The notes beneath the pieces are model-generated. The model worked only from the letters and a program-made list of their open reading frames with translations, did not search any database and was not told where the DNA came from. Made by a program: the position numbers and the translations under genes. Below, piece by piece: positions 2,631 through 51,889 of a DNA stretch of 64,000 nt (position 1 is the first letter of the stretch; each line of letters begins with the position of its first letter). The DNA is from a virus: IMG/VR virus record IMGVR_UViG_3300029564_000003, positions 69,289 through 133,288 of that record; one strand, written 5' to 3'.

Positions 2631-3685
2631 TATAACAACGACTCCACAGATATCACAATAGACGACACACACTGGCTGCGGTCGTCGGAAAGCACGAGCT
2701 TGAAGTCCTCGTCGATATATGCGTCGTCATCAATGCCAATGAGTATGTCGTTATCGACAATCTCGACATCAAGTGCATCCCTGAAGGAAGATATGATATT
2801 CCATCTTGGTACGATATGCGGCAACACGGTGCCGTTCTCATCATAGAACACCGCCGTAAATCGCTTAGCATCTCCACCAGATTTTATCACATCTGAATCG
2901 TGCTCGATTACAGAACGCATCACATCTGATTCAACGATATCATCCTGTTCGCCCAAAGGCTCGAAGTAATCGCAAATACCCAAATCTATACGGTCTGTAT
3001 AATGATTGAACACATTCTCAGTAACCGTTACGCGAACGATTCCTTTTTTTCCGTAGCCATAGCTCGTCGTATCGTTCTGCGTTACGATGAACACGCTCGG
3101 ACTTTCCATATTTTTATCCAAGAATATACGCTTGGGCGTCTTCAACTTTACCGTGTTTTCATCACACGGCAATGTCAACATGTGCTGCGAAGAGCCGATT
3201 GTGAACTGCCTATTCGACTGCTCACCAGAGTTATACTGTGTTGTGTTGATGTCGTAACACGGATACTCCCAAATAACCCCATCGGCATCCTGCCATTTCA
3301 GAATCCAATTGCACATAGTTAACTTTCCCTGCCAATGCACGCCATCAATATCGAACGACTCGGTGCATATATAATGCTCATCGGCATTGGAGTCATATAA
3401 TAGGTCGCCCACCATAACCTGCGTATCATACAGGGTTTGAAATTTCATGGTGACGCCTTGCGCTGCTGAGAAGCTGCGCTTGAAGATTCGTATGGCGATA
3501 CCATCATCGCCGACATAGTCTTCAGCACATCTCTTCCCGTGCCGCCAGAAATAAACACCGGGCGTGAGAGATGCGTCATCGAAGAACGTATCGCCCATGA
3601 GCATCCTACTGTTGTAAATATGCTCTTCTCTGAGTGAGTTTCCGCCCATACGCATCTTTGCGTTGAACTTATCAAGTCCTCTCAC
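2630..3685 (-). CDS. hypothetical virion structural protein
   Basis: 351-aa ORF, co-oriented and tightly packed in the late module. Confidence 0.4.
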   Translation of the reverse strand: MRGLDKFNAKMRMGGNSLREEHIYNSRMLMGDTFFDDASLTPGVYFWRHGKRCAEDYVGDDGIAIRIFKRSFSAAQGVTMKFQTLYDTQVMVGDLLYDSNADEHYICTESFDIDGVHWQGKLTMCNWILKWQDADGVIWEYPCYDINTTQYNSGEQSNRQFTIGSSQHMLTLPCDENTVKLKTPKRIFLDKNMESPSVFIVTQNDTTSYGYGKKGIVRVTVTENVFNHYTDRIDLGICDYFEPLGEQDDIVESDVMRSVIEHDSDVIKSGGDAKRFTAVFYDENGTVLPHIVPRWNIISSFRDALDVEIVDNDILIGIDDDAYIDEDFKLVLSDDRSQCVSSIVISVESLL

Positions 3686-4201: not shown

Positions 4202-4762
4202 TTAGAGCACAGACACCAAATCGACACCGAGGCGCTTCTCAATGGTACGAATAACAGCGATATCAATAATATCGCCAGACTCAATCATACCCTTAATCTT
4301 CTGAAGCACAGTAAGCTTAGCGCCAGAACCGAGAGCTTTAATCTTCTCACAAGTTGCGCCGACACACTCACGGGTATATGCATCGACAGACATGAACTCT
4401 TCGGTCTTATCGCATAGCTTGGAGAGATTCAGTTTATTGATAACGCGCTCGTCAGTTGGCATGACCTCCATCTTCTCGAAATAGCTCGGGAAGTTGCGGC
4501 GCATACGAGTAAGAGTCTCAAGGGTCATATACTGAACCTCGCCGACGCTTTCCCATACGTACTTATCGGCTGTTGCTTTATCCTCATAACTCACACGATA
4601 GGGTACATTGGATGCAACCTCGACCTCATCTGACGGAGAAAGCTCCTTTTGCTTCGGAGCAGACTTGACAGGGGGCGCAGTCTTCTCTACAACCACAGCC
4701 TCATCAACGATGGGGGTCTCATCTGCCTTTTTGGTAGTGGTACTCTTCTTTGCAGCAGGCAT
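4202..4762 (-). CDS. hypothetical structural protein (Lys/Pro/Ala-rich N-terminus)
   Basis: 186-aa ORF immediately downstream of the capsid gene; low-complexity N-terminus PAAKKSTTTKKADETP. Confidence 0.4.
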   Translation of the reverse strand: MPAAKKSTTTKKADETPIVDEAVVVEKTAPPVKSAPKQKELSPSDEVEVASNVPYRVSYEDKATADKYVWESVGEVQYMTLETLTRMRRNFPSYFEKMEVMPTDERVINKLNLSKLCDKTEEFMSVDAYTRECVGATCEKIKALGSGAKLTVLQKIKGMIESGDIIDIAVIRTIEKRLGVDLVSVL

Positions 4763-18788: not shown

Positions 18789-19202
18789 TATTTGTTTTTA
18801 TATGTTTTCACTTTGTTTATCAACAAAAAACATTGTTTATAAACAAAAGCATCATAAAAACAAATACATTTTACAATTATAGCATATATATTCGCCAGTT
18901 AAAACCATCATCTATCACATCCATGGAAATAACATCGACATTCAACATGGCTAATAATACACATGCTTAATCGCGCACGTTGATATCCGTATACCCAGTT
19001 ATCAAAGTTTTATACGGTCGTATCTCTTCTTCACGAAATCTACATATAGCAACAACTAAAAGCAGTCACTTTGAAACTCGCGCCAAACTGATGGCGTAGT
19101 CTCGCCTTCGGCTCGCTACGCAGATGGGAGATAATCATACGGCCATTGGTTATAGCATACATCTATTGATTATACGATTGCAACCGTGATATCATCTTCG
19201 TC

Positions 19203-19270
19203 AAAACTTGTCACTTTGATTTCCTCGTTATAATATATATATAACGGTTTTTTCAAAGTGACAAGTTTTG
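19203..19270. repeat. 68-bp perfect palindrome, copy 1 (18-bp arms CAAAACTTGTCACTTTGA, centre CGTTATAATATATATATAACGG)
   Basis: Read directly from the sequence; identical second copy 191 bp downstream. Confidence 0.9.
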
Positions 19271-19393
19271 GAGTTGTATAATTTTGTGTTCATTCCATGA
19301 AGATGTTATATGAGTGTATAAAGTTTTAAGTTGTGGGTATAGAACCAACGACGACCAGAGATGTTTCATCGACGGTCGTTTTTAAGGAAATTT

Positions 19394-19461
19394 AAAACTT
19401 GTCACTTTGATTTCCTCGTTATAATATATATATAACGGTTTTTTCAAAGTGACAAGTTTTG
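19394..19461. repeat. 68-bp perfect palindrome, copy 2
   Basis: Identical to 19203..19270. Confidence 0.9.
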
Positions 19462-19490
19462 CTTGTATAACGATAAGGAGCCTTTGTCTT

Positions 19491-19646
19491 ATGCTGAATA
19501 ACATAAAGAATTATATGCGTTACGCCCTAAGAGATGAAATATCTCATTTTTACAGAGAATCAGTTCCTTACGTAGAATCATCTCTCATCCCCGAGGCGGA
19601 GCGCAGCGGAGACCTCGGCATCAGTTTAGCGCTAATTTCAAAGTGA
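19491..19646 (+). CDS. hypothetical small protein (51 aa)
   Basis: AAGGAG RBS 10 nt upstream of the ATG; lies between the palindromes and the iterons. Confidence 0.25.
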   Translation: MLNNIKNYMRYALRDEISHFYRESVPYVESSLIPEAERSGDLGISLALISK

Positions 19647-19770
19647 CAAGTTTGGCAACTTGAAGTGACAAATTCTTATGAATTTGAAGTGACAAACTTT
19701 TACAAGTTTGAAGTGACAAGTTTAACAACTTAAACAATAAGTTTGGCAACTTAAACAACCAAACACGTAA
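19636..19770. repeat. iteron array: 4-5 direct repeats of GAAGTGACAA(G/A)TT at ~24-bp spacing, plus GTTTGGCAACTT x2
   Basis: Seen in sequence; shares the GTGACAA core with the palindrome arms and with a single site at ~19063. Confidence 0.85.
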
Positions 19771-41234: not shown

Positions 41235-42152
41235 GTGGCGAGAGAGTATGATGCATTTGTTGATTCGATAGAATCTGAGAACACGGCGAAGATAGCGCGG
41301 TCTATGTCGTACATAGGGGAACACGATTACGATTGCGTGACACCTCCGATGATTGACGCTGTCGTGTTGGATATGAAACCAAAGAGCATGAAAGATATCA
41401 CAACGACTTTGTATATCATGTCATTATATGCCGTGTATCTCGGTAATAGAGATATGGAATACATGATAAGAGGTGTCGATAGGAAACTGTTGTGGAGAAT
41501 GGCCAAGCCACATGCGCCAAAGAAGTTCATATCGTCAGCTGAGTTCGAAGATATATACGACAGTATCTTAAGACACGAGGAACATAACGCATTGTATTAT
41601 GCATCTTTATTTGCAAGCATATACTATGGCATATACTCAGACGATTTGAGTGCGCTCAAGAATCTGCGTGCGTCCGATATAGACGGAACATCGGTACGTG
41701 TCGGCGATATCGTCATCGATGTGCCAATCGAGTTGTCAAGAAATCTTTTATCTCTGGCTGACAGCAATGCATGGTGGCGCAATAATAGATACGGCGCGTA
41801 CAAGGTTGTCACCAAAGGTTTGCATGATGATTCGTGCTTCAAGGTTGAGAGCAGGAACGGAACGACAGAATACACGTACAGATACAGTTATTATAGGATG
41901 CTGAGGAAGATAGCCAAGGAATATATCGGCAGGGGATTGACGCCATTGCAGTTATATGTGAGCGGCATAATGTACAGGCTGTCGAAAAGACTTGATGATA
42001 TCGGTGTCACATTGGAAGATGCGTTCGGTGACAACAATAAGAACAGGTCTGTGAGCAGAATCATACGTGATGAATTGGATTATTCTGGATATGATATAGA
42101 GGTTCGCAACTTTCGTGAGATTGTCAAAGGCCATATAGATACATTTACATGA
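41235..42152 (+). CDS. divergent tyrosine-recombinase-like protein
   Basis: GTG start; LRASDIDGT echoes the integrase R-box; Tyr-rich C-terminus; weaker match than the int gene. Confidence 0.35.
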   Translation: MAREYDAFVDSIESENTAKIARSMSYIGEHDYDCVTPPMIDAVVLDMKPKSMKDITTTLYIMSLYAVYLGNRDMEYMIRGVDRKLLWRMAKPHAPKKFISSAEFEDIYDSILRHEEHNALYYASLFASIYYGIYSDDLSALKNLRASDIDGTSVRVGDIVIDVPIELSRNLLSLADSNAWWRNNRYGAYKVVTKGLHDDSCFKVESRNGTTEYTYRYSYYRMLRKIAKEYIGRGLTPLQLYVSGIMYRLSKRLDDIGVTLEDAFGDNNKNRSVSRIIRDELDYSGYDIEVRNFREIVKGHIDTFT

Positions 42153-43240: not shown

Positions 43241-43413
43241 GTCGTATCTTCGACTGCTAAGGTATGATTGTTGGATTATGGAGGAAATATGGAGACGTAA
43301 ATTCTCGGTTGACCTCTTAGTCCGAATATGGTATAATACCATCAACAAACGGCGCGCATACTAGTAAATATATATGCGTACATACGTTAAAGTTCAAAGA
43401 AAGGAAGAACATT

Positions 43414-44064
43414 ATGACTACCGAGACTATGAATATGCACAAGGCTCTTGTCGAGCGCAAGATTCTGCCTGACCGCATTTACAAGTTGCAGCGTGAGTGC
43501 GAGTTCATCAAGGCAGTTAAGAATAACTCCAAGAAGATTGGAGGCAAGACGGTTCGCGAGCTTGAGGAGGCTATGAAGGCCAACGACCAGAAGCTCAGTG
43601 ACCTTGAGAATCGACTTAACGCTCTTGACGATGCCATTACGATGTCTAATGGCGAGACCACGGTTACAATCAATGGCGAGACCATTACCGTTTCCGTGGC
43701 AATTGAGCGAAAGAAGAAGCGCGTTGCTCGTCTTCAGGCTCGTCGCGACTCACTTATTATGCAGTATCGTGATGCCATGAGTACCTACGATATGAATAGC
43801 GGGGATGTTCTTGAGGATGAGGCCAACGAGTATGTTCAGCGCATCCTTCGCTCTCAGGGTGGCACCGCAGAGAAGTCTGATGATAAGTTCATCAAGGCTC
43901 TTCATGATTCTTACATCGAGAATAACGAGTTCAAGCTTATCGACCCGCTTGGCGTCAAGGATAGAATCGCATCTCTTGATGATGAGATTGCCGAGCTTGA
44001 GTCTGAGTACGATGCTGCGCTCAGCGTGAGCAATGCGATTACCGTGATTGAGTTCTCCTACTAG
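43414..44064 (+). CDS. coiled-coil protein (216 aa)
   Basis: GAAAGGAAGAAC RBS; heptad-rich central region. Confidence 0.5.
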   Translation: MTTETMNMHKALVERKILPDRIYKLQRECEFIKAVKNNSKKIGGKTVRELEEAMKANDQKLSDLENRLNALDDAITMSNGETTVTINGETITVSVAIERKKKRVARLQARRDSLIMQYRDAMSTYDMNSGDVLEDEANEYVQRILRSQGGTAEKSDDKFIKALHDSYIENNEFKLIDPLGVKDRIASLDDEIAELESEYDAALSVSNAITVIEFSY

Positions 44065-44220
44065 CCATCAACGATGAACTTGTTGCAAGCCGAAAACCTA
44101 GAACGGCTGTTCATCTTATGCTTGCCGTTGAGAGATGTAAAATATTATAACGTGCTCCATTTATCTTATATATAAGTGCCATTGATAAAGGCGCTCTTCA
44201 AGGGGAAGAGAATTTTCCGC

Positions 44221-44365
44221 AAAGTTCAAACCTCAAAGATTAAGGTTCATGGTTCAACGCTTAAAGTTCTACATCTCATTTGCATGATTGGTGTTTACGG
44301 ATTTTTATATCGTGCAAATGAACGCAAAGTTCAATCTTCAAGCACAAACGTTCAAGTCTATATCA
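44221..44365. repeat. iteron cluster AAAGTTCAA(A/T)C / CGTTCAAG (5-6 copies)
   Basis: Seen in sequence; non-coding. Confidence 0.7.
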
Positions 44366-44650
44366 AATCCTTGGGTTTCGGTTATTCGTTTAACAGCCAA
44401 CGACGATAGGTTATCCACAAGGCTGGCTTGTAACAAGTTCTTTCTTGACGATATGCGCCAAGACGCATCGACTGATACCGACAGTCGGAAAATAAACGGT
44501 ATGCTGAGCGGTCTTGGAAACGCTCAGGTTTAGATATTGTCTGTGTAGACTTTGCGCATGTTCTACTAAGTGTCCAGTAAGCGGCGAACCTCAGTGTACA
44601 ATAAGGGGAGCAAAGAGGAAACAGCAGACATTATTTTGATTGTGACACGT

Positions 44651-44734
44651 CCGAGGCTGGCGAAATTGGCAGACGCATCGGACTTAAAATCCGACGGTAG
44701 CAATACCATACGAGTTCGACTCTCGTGCTTCGGA
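44651..44734 (+). tRNA. tRNA-Leu (anticodon TAA), class II with long variable arm; no encoded CCA
   Basis: Manual fold: 7-bp acceptor CCGAGGC/GCTTCGG, U8, 3-bp D-stem with 11-nt D-loop, anticodon stem TCGGA/TCCGA, loop CTTAAAA (U33, A37), 15-nt variable arm, T-arm ACGAG-TTCGACT-CTCGT. Confidence 0.6.
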
Positions 44735-44897
44735 CGTGTCACAATTGACACTGTTGTTGGAGTGCGCGAGGTGGGCGCATCGTATAAGTTGACAAGACAG
44801 GCGACTTATAATCGCCAGATGCAGGAGCGTGGCCTGCTGCGCCTACCTCCCGTACTCCAACAATTCGGAAATTTTATTGGCTAAGAAAGGAAACACA

Positions 44898-45827
44898 ATG
44901 CTCTTTTTCATCGCAGGTTGCCTCTTGGCAATCATTGGAATCGTGCTTACCATCGCTCTTGTTCGAGCAAACAAGAAGAACGACAACGATTCTACGACCC
45001 CTATCGGCGGACTTGTTGTTCTTGCCATCGGTCTCGTTCTTATCCTGCTGTCTAGCATTTATACTCAGGATGTTGGTGAGACTGTTGTTCTTCGCAACCT
45101 TGGCGGTTCCGTTGCTGGCCATTCCGAGGATGCTGGTTTCCACTTCAAGGCGCCTTGGCAGGACACTATCAAGTATGATACCCGTAACAACCTTATCAAT
45201 ATGTACGGTGACACGGAATATTCTTACGATGGTGGTTCGGCTCAGGGTTCTAAGGTCACTATCAACGATGCGTCTGGTGCCAAGGCGAACATTGATATTC
45301 AGGTGAATTATTCGCTTGACCCGTCCACTGCGGAATATCTTTACAGTGAGTATGGCACTCAGACCGTGTTCACTCAGAACTACGTGTCGCAGGATGTTCG
45401 CTCTGTCGCTCGTGAGCAAGCTGGCAAGTTCGACACCATCACGCTTCTCACCGACCGCGCTCAGTACACCAAGGCAATCACCGATGCGCTGACCGCAAAG
45501 TGGGATAAGATTGGACTGACCGTTGAGCAGGTCACTGTTCAGGATATCTCTTATCCTCAGTCCATCACCGATGCATATGCTCGCTCTCAGGAGGCCGAGG
45601 TTGAGAAGCAGACCGCCCTCAACGAGCAGGAGACCGCTAAGGTTAAGGCTGAGACAAAGGTCGTTGAGGCTGAGAAGGAGGCGGAGGCCAACCGCAAACT
45701 TGCCGAGTCTCTTACTCCCGAGGTTTTGACGAAGCAGTACTATGATACTCTTTCTGAGCTTGGCAAGAATGGCAATGTTGTCGTGACCGATGGTCGTAGC
45801 ACTCCCATTGTTAACGTCGGTAAGTAA
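44898..45827 (+). CDS. SPFH/band-7 (prohibitin/HflK-C-like) domain membrane protein
   Basis: N-terminal TM helix, then an SPFH-like core and an Ala/Glu/Lys-rich coiled-coil (QEAEVEKQTALNEQETAKVKAETKVVEAEKEAEANRKLAE) typical of band-7 proteins. Confidence 0.6.
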   Translation: MLFFIAGCLLAIIGIVLTIALVRANKKNDNDSTTPIGGLVVLAIGLVLILLSSIYTQDVGETVVLRNLGGSVAGHSEDAGFHFKAPWQDTIKYDTRNNLINMYGDTEYSYDGGSAQGSKVTINDASGAKANIDIQVNYSLDPSTAEYLYSEYGTQTVFTQNYVSQDVRSVAREQAGKFDTITLLTDRAQYTKAITDALTAKWDKIGLTVEQVTVQDISYPQSITDAYARSQEAEVEKQTALNEQETAKVKAETKVVEAEKEAEANRKLAESLTPEVLTKQYYDTLSELGKNGNVVVTDGRSTPIVNVGK

Positions 45828-46414
45828 TATGTTATTCATCGCCTCGGTATCCTTCGGGTAGTCCGTGAAAGATGATATGGCTTTGGCTATATCACGAAAG
45901 CGAAACTGTCAGAGCTAAAACCTTTGCTGGTGGTATAGGCTAAACCAGCACCTTCTGTGGAATATATTGAGCCACTCCGCCGCATTTGCAGTCAGTTCAA
46001 GCAAACGAAGAATATTAGAGAATTCCTTCATAGCTCTTGTTGGCAACGGTTAAATATATTCCACAGAGGGTTTCATCTGCAAGGCGCACATGTACGCGGC
46101 ACTATAACCACTTGTCCATATGGCTTTCTCCTTACTACTATTTGCTGTTACTTATTATTGTGGTTTTCCTCTCTTTGTGACGTGTATGTTTTTCCTTTCT
46201 CTCGCGTAATTAACTCTCTTTGGCCCGTGCGTGTGCGTCTTGCAGATGAAATCTCTCTGATATGCATCTCTACCGTGTGTAGATGATGCCCTCTGGAAGC
46301 GTCTAATCGGCGCTTCCTGTTTGGAGTGGATAACCAGTGGGGAACTGGGCTGGACTGCTAATCCAAGCGTGCCATTTGTGGCATTGGTGTCGGATACCAA
46401 TCGCTCCGCCAAAT

Positions 46415-46494
46415 GCGCCTATAGGGTAATGGAGAACCCACCTGTCTTCTAAACAGGAATTTTAATCTCAGTTCGACTCTGAGTAGGCGTACCA
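46415..46494 (+). tRNA. tRNA-Arg (anticodon TCT), CCA encoded, unusually long 9-nt variable loop
   Basis: Manual fold: acceptor GCGCCTA/TAGGCGT (G1-U72), U8, D-arm GGGT-AATGGAGA-ACCC, anticodon arm CCTGT-CTTCTAA-ACAGG, T-arm CTCAG-TTCGACT-CTGAG, discriminator A + CCA. Confidence 0.55.
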
Positions 46495-46535
46495 GCTGTA
46501 ATTGCAGAGCGACTAGTCAGAAAGTAGCTAGTCTG

Positions 46536-47138
46536 ATGAAAGGTGAAACTCGCACACCCGTCGCTCTGCTTACAAATATTGCGAGAGATTGCGAGATTTA
46601 TATGGATGAATCCAATTCATATGAACTATGGAAAGAGTTGGTGTATCAATCAGAAAACTATCCTAAATTTGAAGTATCTAATACTGGTCAATTAAGAAAC
46701 TCAAAAACAAAACACATATACAAACAACATCTAAATCATCAAGGATATTATCAGGTATGTGTTTCACTTGGCAGTAGAAGTAGCAAAAAGGTTTTCAAGA
46801 TACACAGAGCTGTTGCGGAAACATTTGTAGAAAATCCATATAACAAGCAAATTATAAATCATATAGATGGCATAAAAACAAACAATAATGCAGCTAATCT
46901 TGAATTTGTAACGCATCAAGAAAATACAATTCATGCAGTTAAAAATGGATTGACACATTATCATTATGGGGAAGATATACATAATGCAAAGTTTACAAAT
47001 GATGAAGTAAGACATATAAGAGAAATATATATTGAAAACGATAAGGAATTTGGATGTTGTGCCTTGGCAAAGAAGTACAACGTTAATCATTCTGTTATAT
47101 CAAGAATAATTCATAATAAGCATTATGCCCATGTCTAA
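46536..47138 (+). CDS. HNH homing endonuclease (phage HNH_3 type)
   Basis: GYYQVCV...KIHRAVAETFVENPYNKQIINHIDGIKTNNNAANLEFVTHQEN = HNH_3 signature; AT-rich relative to neighbours; adjacent to a tRNA. Confidence 0.7.
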   Translation: MKGETRTPVALLTNIARDCEIYMDESNSYELWKELVYQSENYPKFEVSNTGQLRNSKTKHIYKQHLNHQGYYQVCVSLGSRSSKKVFKIHRAVAETFVENPYNKQIINHIDGIKTNNNAANLEFVTHQENTIHAVKNGLTHYHYGEDIHNAKFTNDEVRHIREIYIENDKEFGCCALAKKYNVNHSVISRIIHNKHYAHV

Positions 47139-47147
47139 GGAGCAACC

Positions 47148-47534
47148 ATGAGTGACCTCAAGCAAGAATACCTCGATGCAAAGTATGCGGATTATGACGA
47201 TGAATCTGATGCTCCATATCATCGAAAGCGCAAGCACAGCAAGCCAAAGAAATCAAGTCATAAACACGAGTATGTAAATATGGTAGTCGTGAACCCAGAA
47301 AAGGAGGATGACTTTCACCTTGTTGGTGCGTGTAAGCAGTGTGGTAAGATAGGCAATGTTCAAACAGATAAAAGAATTGAACGGAAATTTCCCAATATCA
47401 AATATAAATCATACATGATTTGCCATTCTGTTGGACACGAAAGTGAATATGATGAGTTTGTGAAGTGGTGCAAAGACAACTATGAGGTTGTTGAAATCGA
47501 TTATGATGATATGTGGGATTTGAAATACATCTGA
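47148..47534 (+). CDS. hypothetical protein with basic N-terminal patch and CxxC...H.H cluster
   Basis: 128 aa; GGAGCAACC RBS. Confidence 0.45.
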   Translation: MSDLKQEYLDAKYADYDDESDAPYHRKRKHSKPKKSSHKHEYVNMVVVNPEKEDDFHLVGACKQCGKIGNVQTDKRIERKFPNIKYKSYMICHSVGHESEYDEFVKWCKDNYEVVEIDYDDMWDLKYI

Positions 47535-49434: not shown

Positions 49435-50619
49435 GTGTATCTTGATAACGCGGCCACGACTAAAATCAAAGACGAAGTCCTTGATGCCATGATGCCGTAT
49501 CTTACAGAGCAATTCTACAATCCATCCTCTCTGTACTCAGAGTCGGTAAAGGTTAAAGAGGCAGTTGACAATGCTCGCTCAATGGTCGGAGAATTCATCG
49601 GTTCAAAGCCGAATGAGATTTACTTCACGAGTGGTGGCAGCGAAGCTAACAGCTGGGCTATTCAAGGCTTCGTCAATAGCCGACTGAATAAGAAGCGGTT
49701 GCCGTATATCATCACCACTGATATCGAGCACAAGTCAATTCTTGATTGTGTGAAGAATCAGACCTTGGCAACCAAGTATCATCTTGGCGTTGATTATGAG
49801 GGTTACGTCTCCAAGGACGAACTCAATGATGCAATTGCGCTCATGATTAACAGCGGTGCAAATCCCGCCGATATTCTCGTGTCTATTCAGTTCGCCAACA
49901 ACGAGGTTGGAAGCATCCAGAATATCGAGGAGCTGTCAGAGGTCGCGCATATGTACGGCTGCGTGTTCCACACCGATGCCGTTCAGGCTTTTGGACAGCT
50001 GAAGATTGATGTGAATGACATGGGTATCGATATGCTCACGGCATCTGCTCACAAGATTGGTGGAGCCAAGGGCACTGGATTCCTGTATATCAAGAACAAG
50101 ATTCGCAGCAAGTACAAGTTCGCACCTCTTGTCTATGGCAGTCAGATGGGCAATCTTCGAGGCGGTACCGAGAACGTGGCTGGCATTGTGGGTATGGCTA
50201 AGGCCGTCGAGCTTATCAAGGATAAGTGGAAGGATGGTGCCGCACTTGCCATGACACGAGATTATTTCATCAATAAGCTCATCGTCATGGGTTGCGATGT
50301 GAATGGCGCTGTTCCAACTGGTGATGATGGTATCAACGACCGTCTTCCGAACAACGTGAACGTCATTCTTCCCGATGGTGTAGCGGCGGAGAATCTGCTG
50401 TATGCGCTTGATTCTGATGGGGTTAAAATCGGAACTGGTTCCGCTTGCAACTCGAAGTCTGTCAAGCCGTCATATGTTTTGAAGGCTATGCACAAGACTG
50501 ATGATGAGTGTTCGCGTAGCATCCGCATCACCATTCCAGATGATATGACTATGAGTGATGTCGATGAGGTTGTCGAGGTAATCGACAAGAATATCGCCGT
50601 GCTTAAGAACATTGGTTAA
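49435..50619 (+). CDS. iscS: cysteine desulfurase (IscS/NifS-like, class V aminotransferase fold)
   Basis: PLP-lysine motif SAHKIGGAKGTGFLYI and catalytic-Cys loop GSACNSKSVKPSYVLKAM closely match IscS motifs; GTG start with AAGGAG RBS. Confidence 0.75.
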   Translation: MYLDNAATTKIKDEVLDAMMPYLTEQFYNPSSLYSESVKVKEAVDNARSMVGEFIGSKPNEIYFTSGGSEANSWAIQGFVNSRLNKKRLPYIITTDIEHKSILDCVKNQTLATKYHLGVDYEGYVSKDELNDAIALMINSGANPADILVSIQFANNEVGSIQNIEELSEVAHMYGCVFHTDAVQAFGQLKIDVNDMGIDMLTASAHKIGGAKGTGFLYIKNKIRSKYKFAPLVYGSQMGNLRGGTENVAGIVGMAKAVELIKDKWKDGAALAMTRDYFINKLIVMGCDVNGAVPTGDDGINDRLPNNVNVILPDGVAAENLLYALDSDGVKIGTGSACNSKSVKPSYVLKAMHKTDDECSRSIRITIPDDMTMSDVDEVVEVIDKNIAVLKNIG

Positions 50620-50690: not shown

Positions 50691-50710
50691 ATTTGAAGTG
50701 AGGTGTGTAT

Positions 50711-51889
50711 ATGATTGTAAATGGCGAACGCGCACTAGCCTATATCGTTAATGTCGATAGCATCACGCCTATCGACGGCGCAGACAACATCGAGCTTGCG
50801 CATGTCGGCGGATGGAGTCTGATTACCAACATAGGACAGTTCAAGGCTGGTGATGAAGCGGTCTTCTTCGAAATCGATTCGCTGCTTCCAGAGGCGGAGT
50901 GGTCTGAGTTCCTGCGTCCTAAGAAGTTCCGAATTAAGACCCTTCGTCTTAATAAGTTCGGTGTGTGGTCTCAGGGCTTGCTCATGCCGATGGATATCCT
51001 GCCGAAGGGTAAGTCGTTCAAAGTCGGCGATGATGTAACCAAGGTTCTCGGCGTGAAGTATTACGTCGCAGAGGACAATGAGCGCAAGGCGAAGAACCCA
51101 AATCCAAATCAGAAGTACAACCGCATGTGCGCACGCAATCCCAAGCTTGCTCAGAAACCTTGGTTCAAGTGGCTCATGAAGCGCCTGTGGGGTCGCAAGC
51201 TGCTGTTCGTCTTCTTCGGACATAAGAGCGATAATCCAAAGAAGTTCCCGCAGTGGATTAAACGGACTGATGAAGATAGGGTGGAGAATGTCATGTGGCT
51301 ACTCGATGACAAATCACCATATGTAGTAACCGAGAAAATCGATGGAACTTCGCTGACGGTATTCCTAGATTTGACTGGTCGTAAACCAGACTTCGGGGTG
51401 TGTTCTCGTAACGTACGTCAGATTGATATGTATAAAGAGAACTTCCATACTGAATCAGCTGGCACCAACGTATACTGGGAGGCAGCGCTTCGGTATGACC
51501 TCAAGACCGTGTGCGAGAAGATTGCAAAGGAGACTGGCAGCAAGCGCGTTGTGATTCAGGGCGAGGTGTACGGTGAGGGCATTCAGGGCAATCCATTACA
51601 TATCGACCACCGCGACCTAGCCGTGTTTAATCTTGTGCTTGACGGCGTGCGTCTTGGCTCCATTGAGGCCGATAATATCTTATGGAAGTACGGTGTCCCG
51701 TTCGTTCCGATTCTCGATGAATCCTTTATTCTCCCCGACAAGGAGGACTTCGAGGACTTCAAGTTGTACGCGGACGGTAAAAGCGTAATTAATAAGAAGT
51801 GTCTGCGTGAAGGTGTCGTATGCCGTAGTCAAGATGGTCAGAAGTCGTTTAAGAACGTCAGTCGCAAATGGCTGATGCAGCATGAGTAG
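50711..51889 (+). CDS. ATP-dependent polynucleotide ligase; RNA ligase-like with N-terminal OB-like domain (Rnl5/DraRnl-like architecture)
   Basis: Nucleotidyltransferase motif I KIDGT (EKIDGTSLTV) ~200 aa from the N-terminus, motif III-like VIQGEVYGEG, motif V-like REGVVCR...K. Confidence 0.5.
   Translation: MIVNGERALAYIVNVDSITPIDGADNIELAHVGGWSLITNIGQFKAGDEAVFFEIDSLLPEAEWSEFLRPKKFRIKTLRLNKFGVWSQGLLMPMDILPKGKSFKVGDDVTKVLGVKYYVAEDNERKAKNPNPNQKYNRMCARNPKLAQKPWFKWLMKRLWGRKLLFVFFGHKSDNPKKFPQWIKRTDEDRVENVMWLLDDKSPYVVTEKIDGTSLTVFLDLTGRKPDFGVCSRNVRQIDMYKENFHTESAGTNVYWEAALRYDLKTVCEKIAKETGSKRVVIQGEVYGEGIQGNPLHIDHRDLAVFNLVLDGVRLGSIEADNILWKYGVPFVPILDESFILPDKEDFEDFKLYADGKSVINKKCLREGVVCRSQDGQKSFKNVSRKWLMQHE

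Follow-up and report, generated by a model that had tools for sequence, protein, structure and literature searches.

A tRNA island with two stalk-enclosed tRNA genes

The DNA analysed here (herein the window) is a stretch of 64,000 nucleotides (nt), corresponding to positions 69,289 to 133,288 of the IMG/VR virus record IMGVR_UViG_3300029564_000003. It carries a small island of tRNA genes on both sides of a gene for an SPFH/Band-7 membrane protein (Table 1). Two of these genes, tRNA-Leu(UAA) and tRNA-Ile(UAU), are each enclosed by a long inverted repeat that continues the acceptor helix outward into the 5′ leader and the 3′ trailer; we call these extensions “stalks”. An initial annotation, based on the letters and their open reading frames (ORFs), had described two tRNAs in this region, Leu(TAA) and Arg(TCT). 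ARAGORN and the Rfam tRNA model (RF00005, gathering threshold 29 bits) accept both, but the region holds four, the Ile(UAU) and Ser(GCU) genes having been overlooked. With default settings ARAGORN reports Leu at 44651-44735, Ile at 44773-44847 and Arg at 46415-46494, all on the + strand. The tRNA-Arg gene has the 9-nt variable loop that had been remarked on (AAUUUUAAU). A whole-window Rfam scan at the gathering threshold omitted this gene, which a 5-kb scan scores at 59.5 bits; we attribute the omission to search filters, and it is no evidence against the tRNA.

The fourth gene, tRNA-Ser(GCU), lies 3 nt upstream of tRNA-Arg and is seen by ARAGORN only at -ps80 (80% of the score threshold); Rfam gives no match to it at E<1. 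We judge it to be a real gene despite the Rfam miss, because its homologue in the related contig L001 (3348-3436) keeps 27 of 27 predicted pairs, seven of them changed on both sides and none broken. Two of the four tRNAs here were thus missed by eye or by default tools, a point that matters for annotation. All four have 7-nt anticodon loops with U33 and a purine at 37 (Leu CUUAAAA, Ile CUUAUAA, Ser CUGCUAA, Arg CUUCUAA). The T loop is canonical (U54-U55-C56-R57-A58) in Leu and Arg (both GUUCGAC) and departs from this in Ile (AGCGUGG) and Ser (GUCGGAU); the A54...U58 variant of tRNA-Ile is also found in the homologous Ile genes of L017 and L125. A T loop of the form A54-N55-C56-G57-U58 (N55 = G or U) recurs in the window gene at 44773-44845, in L017 (62-135) and in a Tyr(GUA)-like tRNA of L003 (~2990-3075, ending GCGGCACCA) that neither ARAGORN nor Rfam reports.

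The 12-bp perfect inverted repeat around tRNA-Leu that the initial annotation had pointed out is present (ATTGTGACACGT, 44639-44650; ACGTGTCACAAT, 44734-44745), and the discriminator A44734 pairs with T44650. Together with the acceptor stem the repeat makes a helix of 19 bp, or of 22 bp when one extra Watson–Crick and two G·U pairs are counted. The tRNA-Ile stalk (44753-72/44845-64) has 19 to 20 pairs with one C·C mismatch, and again the discriminator pairs with nucleotide -1. Stalk and acceptor stem add up to 19 to 22 bp for Leu, 26 to 27 bp for Ile and 18 to 31 bp across the family of related phages described below, about two helical turns or more. When 44600-44900 is folded as RNA, both cloverleaves sit on top of long closing helices (z = -6.7; none of 100 shuffled sequences folds equally well). 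No sigma-70 promoter was found directly upstream of tRNA-Leu, and the best promoter-like sites precede the ORF that begins at 43414; the tRNAs are therefore probably co-transcribed with the flanking genes. A megablast search with 43400-47200 gave no match among cultured and deposited phages.

Table 1. Features of the window discussed in the text
Feature	Position	Strand	Basis and remarks
tRNA-Leu stalk, 5′ arm, TTGATTGTGACACGT	44636..44650	+	inner 12 nt (44639-44650) perfectly paired
tRNA-Leu(UAA), class II	44651..44734	+	ARAGORN; Rfam RF00005, 50.9 bits; discriminator A44734, CGT next, no encoded CCA
tRNA-Leu stalk, 3′ arm, ACGTGTCACAATTGA	44734..44748	+	begins at discriminator; alternative local hairpin 44736-44751
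tRNA-Ile stalk, 5′ arm, GTTGTTGGAGTGCGCGAGGT	44753..44772	+	covaries with L017 and L125
tRNA-Ile(UAU)	44773..44845	+	ARAGORN; Rfam, 36.9 bits; discriminator A44845, CCT next, no encoded CCA
tRNA-Ile stalk, 3′ arm, ACCTCCCGTACTCCAACAAT	44845..44864	+	C·C mismatch at stalk position 6; G·U at positions 9 and 20
tRNA-Ser(GCU), non-canonical	46323..46411	+	relaxed ARAGORN; long variable arm; T loop GUCGGAU; encoded CCA
tRNA-Arg(UCU)	46415..46494	+	ARAGORN; Rfam, 59.5 bits; encoded CCA; no stalk
Structured plus-strand RNA domain	45871..46317	+	fold z-scores, helix list, strain substitutions, partial homology in relatives
Hairpin of RNA domain	45871-81/45886-95	+	
Outer helix of RNA domain	45907-14/46255-62	+	
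Hairpin of RNA domain	45925-31/45944-50	+	
22-bp helix of RNA domain	45951-73/46048-70	+	encloses 74 nt; counted as 22-24 bp
29-bp helix of RNA domain	46071-100/46223-51	+	encloses ~120 nt; inverted repeat of 31 nt, 46071-46101/46221-46251
Hairpin of RNA domain	46264-73/46279-89	+	
Hairpin of RNA domain	46295-303/46309-17	+	
SPFH/Band-7 (prohibitin/HflK-like) membrane protein	44898..45827	+	Pfam PF01145, E = 4e-28
Free-standing HNH/NUMOD4 homing endonuclease	46536..47138	+	Pfam; rich in ATA, AGA
Xer-like tyrosine recombinase, 264 aa	40338..41132	+	Pfam PF00589; NCBIfam Xer-like; PHROG 216 integrase
305-aa ORF beside Xer-like recombinase	41235..42152	+	51% identical in L138

Stalks are lineage specific and linked to the lack of an encoded CCA

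Relatives of the window were collected through the SPFH protein. They are viral (gut phage) contigs of ~100-140 kb, at 82-83% SPFH identity in L001 (also present as ENA OPBN01000024.1) and L002, and at 50-63% in L003, L010, L047, L050, L079 and L080; tRNA genes stand just upstream of the SPFH gene in all of them except L080. Stalk length was measured by script as the continuation of the acceptor helix into the flanks, starting at the pair -1:73. Among unique family tRNAs without an encoded CCA, 17 of 39 have a contiguous stalk of at least 10 bp (lengths 11-24 bp), against none of the 83 that encode CCA, where no helix goes past 2 pairs (Fisher p = 2e-10). Permitting a junction loop of up to 5 nt raises these counts to 27/40 and 1/84.

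The background was a sample of 120 unrelated viral contigs retrieved with a generic D-arm 18-mer. None of its 582 tRNAs has a contiguous extension of at least 8 bp (the maximum is 7), and no stalk accompanies any of the 264 CCA-less phage tRNAs in the sample; the matches that appear there when a junction loop is allowed are mostly low-complexity sequence. On contigs binned to Collinsella, each of the 25 tRNAs encodes CCA, and stalks are absent. From these counts we conclude that the stalks are specific to this phage lineage and linked to the lack of an encoded CCA. The helix around tRNA-Leu had been called unusual, which the background bears out, but it is not a one-off, since tRNA-Ile and the relatives share it.

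In the relatives and in a sister strain, the same architecture surrounds Leu, Ile, Arg, Met and Ser tRNAs, and the arm sequence differs from one to the next. A genome has two or three stalk tRNAs, their arms unrelated to one another and at least 3.5 kb from the recombinase. The tRNAs of the lineage, in long transcripts, come in two forms: those that encode CCA and lie 1-6 nt from the next tRNA, and those without CCA in a stalk of 11-24 bp. Tight packing of this kind is seen for 42 of the 70 CCA-encoding tRNAs and never for stalk tRNAs. The stalk tRNAs are not decaying pseudogenes, since their tRNA scores stay good (e.g. 70-73 bits for Arg), and C74 is present in 11 of 11 independent stalk tRNAs. 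The junction is irregular in a few: the Met stalk of the sister strain L263 has a 2x2 loop, the Ser stalk of L001 an A·C at position 2, and the tRNAs that ARAGORN labels “???” have loops of 3-5 nt.

This last group is an 88-nt class II tRNA-like gene (L003 2640-2727, ARAGORN “tRNA-???”) whose anticodon stem has 4 bp and whose 6-nt loop reads UUAAUG. It is also found in L010, L047, L050, L125, L126, L129, L133 and L139; its stem shows covariation when L003 is compared with L050, no CCA is encoded, and a stalk of 13-16 bp encloses it beyond a junction loop. Outside the family, the unrelated background viral contig L236 (31% GC) has Val and Thr tRNAs with near-perfect 10-bp flank helices past junction loops, and stalk-type tRNAs may thus exist in other lineages.

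Pairing is maintained on the plus strand

The stalks of homologous genes differ in sequence while keeping their pairs. Eight sequences of the Arg(UCU) stalk, from two diverged groups, are 99% paired over 14 pairs; in four of these both partners have changed, in none just one, and the T stem of the same genes shows the same covariation pattern. The core of the Ile(UAU) stalk, compared among the window, L017 and L125, has 12 pairs, six changed on both sides, and the C·C at position 6 is present in 3/3. Internal non-Watson–Crick pairs, counted with a symmetric helix definition in which G·T and A·C are on an equal footing, read as G·U on the + strand 11 times and as A·C twice (p = 0.011).

Sister strains were found by an exact look-up of the SPFH protein (L263/L264 and L265). 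In L263 the arms of the Leu stalk are kept (~95% identical), with three transitions that all lead to G·U on the + strand, and the tRNA-Leu(UAA) body inside them is only ~65% identical to that of the window, every stem being altered. L263 also has a Met(CAU) tRNA in a stalk and, in a stalk of 24 pairs, an Ile(UAU) tRNA that differs from the one in the window, and downstream of the SPFH gene it carries Lys, Val and Arg tRNAs with CCA where the window has Ser and Arg. L265 bears a stalk-Arg(UCU).

The sequence between the SPFH gene and tRNA-Ser behaves in the same way. This part of the island had been described as a pyrimidine-rich, non-coding stretch of 575 bp; it contains a structured RNA domain (Table 1) as well as tRNA-Ser, and its pyrimidine content is a mild 55% overall, reaching 72% only in 46102-46220. 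The fold z-score of the domain is -6.6 on the + strand and -4.4 on the - strand, and 45828-46330 folds at -171.7 kcal/mol on + compared with -143.6 kcal/mol on -, a difference of 28 kcal/mol. A 14-bp inverted repeat noted earlier (CTGTGGAATATATT, 45955-45968; AATATATTCCACAG, 46053-46066) is indeed present as the core of the longer 22-24 bp helix. Comparing the window with L263 over 45828-46268, all eight differing paired sites keep pairing in the + strand fold, among them the compensatory pair 45910 C>U/46259 G>A. On the - strand fold, pairing is kept in three cases and broken in six. In coding controls, 26 of 86 substitutions keep pairing and 60 break it (p = 1.6e-4 against the 8/8 of the RNA domain). 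The compensatory changes and the coding controls, despite a substitution spectrum rich in C/T, argue for selection acting at the RNA level on the pairing of the stalks and of the RNA domain.

The domain is partly homologous to the segment that separates ROOL RNA from the first tRNA in relatives. There, ROOL (RF03087, 280-301 bits; L003 1603-2165, L010 1171-1728, L050 1306-1843, L047 1565-2127) lies ~450 nt upstream of the tRNA islands, each copy closed by its own 20-24 bp terminal helix. No match to ROOL was found in the window at the gathering threshold, nor on 44040-44640 at E up to 10. As a candidate for the two non-coding stretches, ROOL or any other Rfam family was rejected for lack of Rfam matches, and a MAFFT alignment of 44050-44470 to ROOL was not credible. 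The other non-coding stretch, 44065-44636 upstream of tRNA-Leu, is protein-free and likewise has no Rfam match; it has a 24-nt long-range inverted repeat (44068-91/44425-48) and AAAGTTCAA repeats, and it differs from L263 at 8 of 572 positions, the adjacent ORF 43414-44064 differing at 113 of 651.

Possible roles of the stalks

Bacterial tRNA ends are made by RNase P at the 5′ side and by RNase Z or exonucleases at the 3′ side, and leader–trailer pairing is considered an obstacle to both. The phage lineage described here keeps 12-24 bp of such pairing by compensatory evolution on CCA-less tRNAs, which suggests an unusual maturation route and poses the question of whether a double-strand-specific nuclease can mature a tRNA, and whether neither a canonical elbow nor an encoded CCA would then be required. 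Tentatively, and with some reserve, we favour the reading that the Leu and Ile inverted repeats serve as RNA-level leader–trailer processing stalks, which a nuclease specific for double strands, for instance RNase III of the host, would cut before CCA is added. Of three ideas that the initial annotation had offered for the helix (a processing signal, an attP core or a tRNA-like decoy), the first is the one that fits the comparative data.

From the anatomy we infer a nuclease, its cut sites and an order of steps. The 7-bp acceptor stem stacked on the 5-bp T stem would form, with the stalk, a duplex of at least two helical turns. Every stalk has at least 11 bp, and 11 bp is about one RNase III half-site on the far side of the acceptor/T-arm stack, so that the 12 stacked bp of the tRNA and the stalk would offer the enzyme about one half-site to either side of the junction. 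The first step would be a cut in the stalk by an endonuclease specific for double strands, most simply RNase III of the host, which would free the tRNA from the transcript. The cut would fall at or near the tRNA ends, in one version as a staggered cut leaving N73-C74; leftover flank nucleotides would then be trimmed, and the host CCA-adding enzyme would finish the 3′ end. The 22-bp and 29-bp helices of the RNA domain would be processed likewise. We regard as rather doubtful a bolder form of this scheme, in which a single staggered double-strand cut where acceptor stem and stalk meet would do the work of RNase P and RNase Z together, and the arms would also bound swaps of whole tRNA bodies between co-circulating strains, making up a modular “stalk cassette” system.

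What is known of the enzymes is compatible with such a route. At least two pairs between leader and 3′ end lower the kcat/Km of Escherichia coli RNase P, which must unwind them (PMC9433436), and eukaryotic RNase P is impaired by a continuous extension of the acceptor stem that lacks a -1/+1 bulge (PMC8457004). Since RNase P is hindered by such pairing, the stalk tRNAs would need another activity. RNase III begins rRNA and tRNA maturation by cutting leader–trailer stalks, and in Gram-positives Mini-III and RNase M5 finish 23S and 5S rRNA (PMC3386247).

Several points weigh against the processing-stalk reading. The RNase III signature motif occurs in no frame of the window or of any fetched locus. 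Unique stalk sequences are not independent, and they reduce to about 11-13 independent stalk families. A C-to-T bias on the + strand may partly produce the G·U excess, the strain differences being mostly C/T. The Leu arms are conserved while the tRNA body between them is replaced, which a role at the DNA level would fit too. Junction loops, from 2x2 to ~5 nt in some stalks, would equally suit RNase P. C74 is found in 71% of the CCA-less tRNAs of unrelated phages as well, which weakens its interpretation as the mark of an RNase III 2-nt overhang.

Unlikely, though far from implausible in our view, is that the stalk protects or times rather than marking a cleavage site. It would keep exonucleases and quality control away from the 5′ leader and from the 3′ end that lacks CCA, or hold the tRNA inactive, and would be opened later by breathing, a helicase or RNase P unwinding, after which ordinary enzymes (RNase P, RNase Z or exonucleases, and the CCA-adding enzyme) finish the ends. 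The anatomy, covariation and strand bias speak for this reading as they do for processing, and C74 is kept as in ordinary CCA-less tRNAs. Several stalks are interrupted by a loop or mismatch adjacent to the tRNA, which is what allows eukaryotic RNase P to deal with extended stems (PMC8457004), and cryo-electron microscopy shows bacterial RNase P unwinding extended acceptor pairing (PMC9433436). Most stalks, however, including both in the window, are continuous from -1:73 over 12-24 bp without a bulge, where two pairs already slow RNase P, and the similar long helices around non-tRNA inserts would be left unexplained.

We consider it improbable that the inverted repeats are primarily DNA-level borders of exchangeable tRNA cassettes, hot spots for recombination or homing in which the Xer-like pair or homing endonucleases perhaps take part and the RNA helix is secondary. 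Strains with identical SPFH proteins do differ in their tRNA sets on both sides of the SPFH gene, and the contrast between conserved Leu arms and a diverged tRNA body is what such borders would give. Furthermore, a relative with 55% SPFH identity has the tyrosine recombinase and its partner ORF in synteny with the island, ATTG/CAAT motifs recur in the arms of unrelated tRNAs, and HNH and GIY-YIG genes lie within islands. A duplex DNA signal would not, however, be expected to show a strand-specific G·U excess, or pairing upkeep on the + strand only (8 kept and 0 broken, compared with 3 and 6 on the - strand), and orthologous stalks evolve by compensatory change rather than preserving a fixed site. 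Nor do the arms look like integron attC sites: inspection by eye found no RYYYAAC...GTTRRRY cores in the required orientation, and the recombinase is a short Xer-like protein, not of the IntI type.

More improbable still, the stalks may be neutral or slightly harmful by-products of template switching, inverted duplications seeded by the acceptor-stem repeat in which the 3′ trailer, CCA included, was overwritten by the complement of the leader. Such events would account for the exact start of the helix at -1:73 and for the absence of CCA from just these genes; in addition, a weak alignment shows a faint resemblance between 46071-46100, the 5′ arm of the 29-bp helix, and the D-arm region of a tRNA-like gene at the same place in relatives, a hint that the 3′ arm is an inverted copy. 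Template switching accounts for the origin of the stalks but not for their maintenance: they persist with compensatory changes though tRNA bodies have diverged in every stem, the tRNAs retain high scores, C74 is retained even at the cost of a base pair (L001 Ser, L263 Met), and a C·C mismatch is conserved at a fixed position.

The remaining ideas, that tRNA-Leu and its repeat are a tRNA-like decoy or else the attP core through which the phage would integrate into the tRNA-Leu gene of a host, we hold to be very improbable: phages often integrate into tRNA genes and a tyrosine recombinase lies 3.5 kb upstream, but the same architecture with unrelated arms surrounds Ile, Arg, Met and Ser tRNAs, the sister strain has a different Leu gene inside the same arms, an attP core should directly match a host tRNA gene and nothing such was seen, a viral contig of 36% GC is the sole DNA match to the tRNA body, a scan with the SPFH protein found no integrated copy (>63% identity) among 185,579 species genomes, and, as regards a decoy, tRNA-Leu is a full-length, canonical class II tRNA with A73 that scores above the Rfam threshold.

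Comparison with known systems

Leader–trailer stalks are already known for rRNAs, and short forms of them for eukaryotic pre-tRNAs. In the literature that could be searched, we found no lineage-wide class of phage tRNAs whose encoded CCA is replaced by continuous stalks of 12-24 bp, and nothing on point about phage tRNA genes lying between inverted repeats or about tRNA precursors of the stalk type. In Firmicutes, Mini-III (23S) and RNase M5 (5S) make mature ends from a double-stranded stalk. The likeness to the rRNA stalks is that the flanks of a stable RNA pair into a long covarying helix, which in rRNA is cut by a double-strand nuclease (PMC3386247). The phage stalks differ in that each encloses a single tRNA of ~75-90 nt, is continuous with the acceptor stem, includes the discriminator and takes the place of CCA; their cleavage would be by analogy.

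In eukaryotic pre-tRNAs and in the precursor of the MALAT1 mascRNA, leader–trailer pairing also lengthens the acceptor stem and affects processing (PMC8457004). Those extended stems are shorter (>6 bp in yeast) and need a -1/+1 bulge or internal loop for RNase P, whereas the phage stalks are mostly continuous, 12-24 bp long, bacterial/phage and tied to the loss of CCA. Pairing of the leader with the 3′-RCCA in E. coli pre-tRNAs similarly extends the acceptor stem, N(-1) and N(-2) pairing with the 3′ end (PMC9433436). It comprises 2-4 pairs, which are inhibitory and which RNase P unwinds; the phage stalks reach 24 pairs and are kept by selection.

Phage T4 offers a likeness in the tRNA genes themselves, which lack an encoded CCA and rely on host 3′ processing and CCA addition. 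The CCA-less tRNAs of T4 need host RNase BN/Z and the CCA-adding enzyme, and to our knowledge their genes have no leader–trailer stalk.

The association of tRNA islands with large ornate RNAs (ROOL, GOLLD) has already been reported, and the two papers concerned do not mention stalks around individual tRNAs (PMC5737381, PMC12286853). The relatives fit this association, with ROOL just upstream of the island, and the window differs in having no ROOL. Our observations bear on the interpretation of such structured-RNA islands (ROOL, GOLLD and their neighbours) that accompany phage tRNAs.

Neighbouring genes, codon use and host

The ORF between the tRNA genes had been assigned to the SPFH/band-7 family, and Pfam agrees: Band_7 scores 99.1 bits against a cut-off of 23.6. 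The protein also matches prohibitin-2 in PDB (6e-11) and PHROG 200 (E = 6e-53), and it has hydrophobic N-terminal segments and a C-terminal coiled-coil-like region. It shares the Band_7 domain with prohibitin and HflK-HflC but is phage-borne and far below the HflK equivalog cut-off (TIGR01933, 30.6 bits against 159.4); unlike these proteins, phage SPFH adjoins tRNA islands in several Collinsella-associated phage groups. Such proteins are not rarely annotated in phages, as had been supposed, given the membership in PHROG 200 and the many Arthrobacter and Microbacterium phages with homologues labelled band-7-like membrane protein.

Among cellular SPFH genes, the nearest to that of the phage are on Collinsella chromosomes (58-63% identity, 64% GC), and we infer a Collinsella host from this identity. 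The phage has ~45% GC, and its SPFH gene is GC-richer than the rest, with host-like codon usage and zero TTA, ATA or AGA codons, a composition that fits capture from a high-GC host and a need for tRNAs that read A-ending codons. The suggestion that the tRNAs read codons favoured by the homing-endonuclease genes and presumably rare in a GC-richer host finds support: per 1000 codons, phage and Collinsella loci use TTA 4.0 and 1.2 times, ATA 12.6 and 4.5 times and AGA 9.0 and 2.3 times, some 3-4x more in the phage, in a comparison biased by a host ORF filter (third-position GC content, GC3 > 0.7) and made with a presumed host. The HNH/NUMOD4 gene beyond tRNA-Arg is extreme in its use of ATA and AGA, and it is absent from the sister strain L263 (region 4600-4700), whose SPFH protein is identical. 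These observations bear on how low-GC phages re-tool translation in a probably high-GC host.

Two recombinases had been proposed ~3.5 kb upstream of the island; one has a detectable recombinase domain. The other, the 305-aa ORF, was rejected as a second recombinase, having no match in Pfam, NCBIfam, PHROGs or PDB sequences and no similarity to the neighbouring recombinase. The recombinase and this ORF are 48% and 51% identical to a pair in L138, a distant relative where they are syntenic with the tRNA island. Elsewhere, the window encodes a portal protein, terminase, FolD, dCMP deaminase, a DnaB-like helicase and a DNA methylase, and its structural proteins are 27-47% identical to those of the SPbeta-like, phiCD211 and Sundance phages (~130 kb). 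Nothing was found to connect the window with the “Phassvirus” gut phages, which recode TAG and are of similar size, and a 216-aa upstream ORF has no relatives in IMG/VR.

An Rnl5-type (DRB0094-like) RNA ligase with an N-terminal OB domain adjoins a class-V aminotransferase (window 50705-51889 and 49435-50619). It might act on cut RNAs; no link between it and the stalks was found.

A second, GC-rich (~60%) phage group (L113, L115-L118), binned to metagenome-assembled genomes of Collinsella and others, has a tRNA array just upstream of the SPFH gene, so that the pairing of tRNA island and SPFH recurs across phage groups. Ten tRNAs were detected in this group, all CCA-encoding and mostly 1-4 nt apart.

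Finally, a cluster of ~30-nt inverted and direct repeats (AAAACTTGTCACTTTGA...) occupies window positions 19050-19700, where the two gene blocks diverge and the GC skew flips sign, and may serve as an origin or have a regulatory role.

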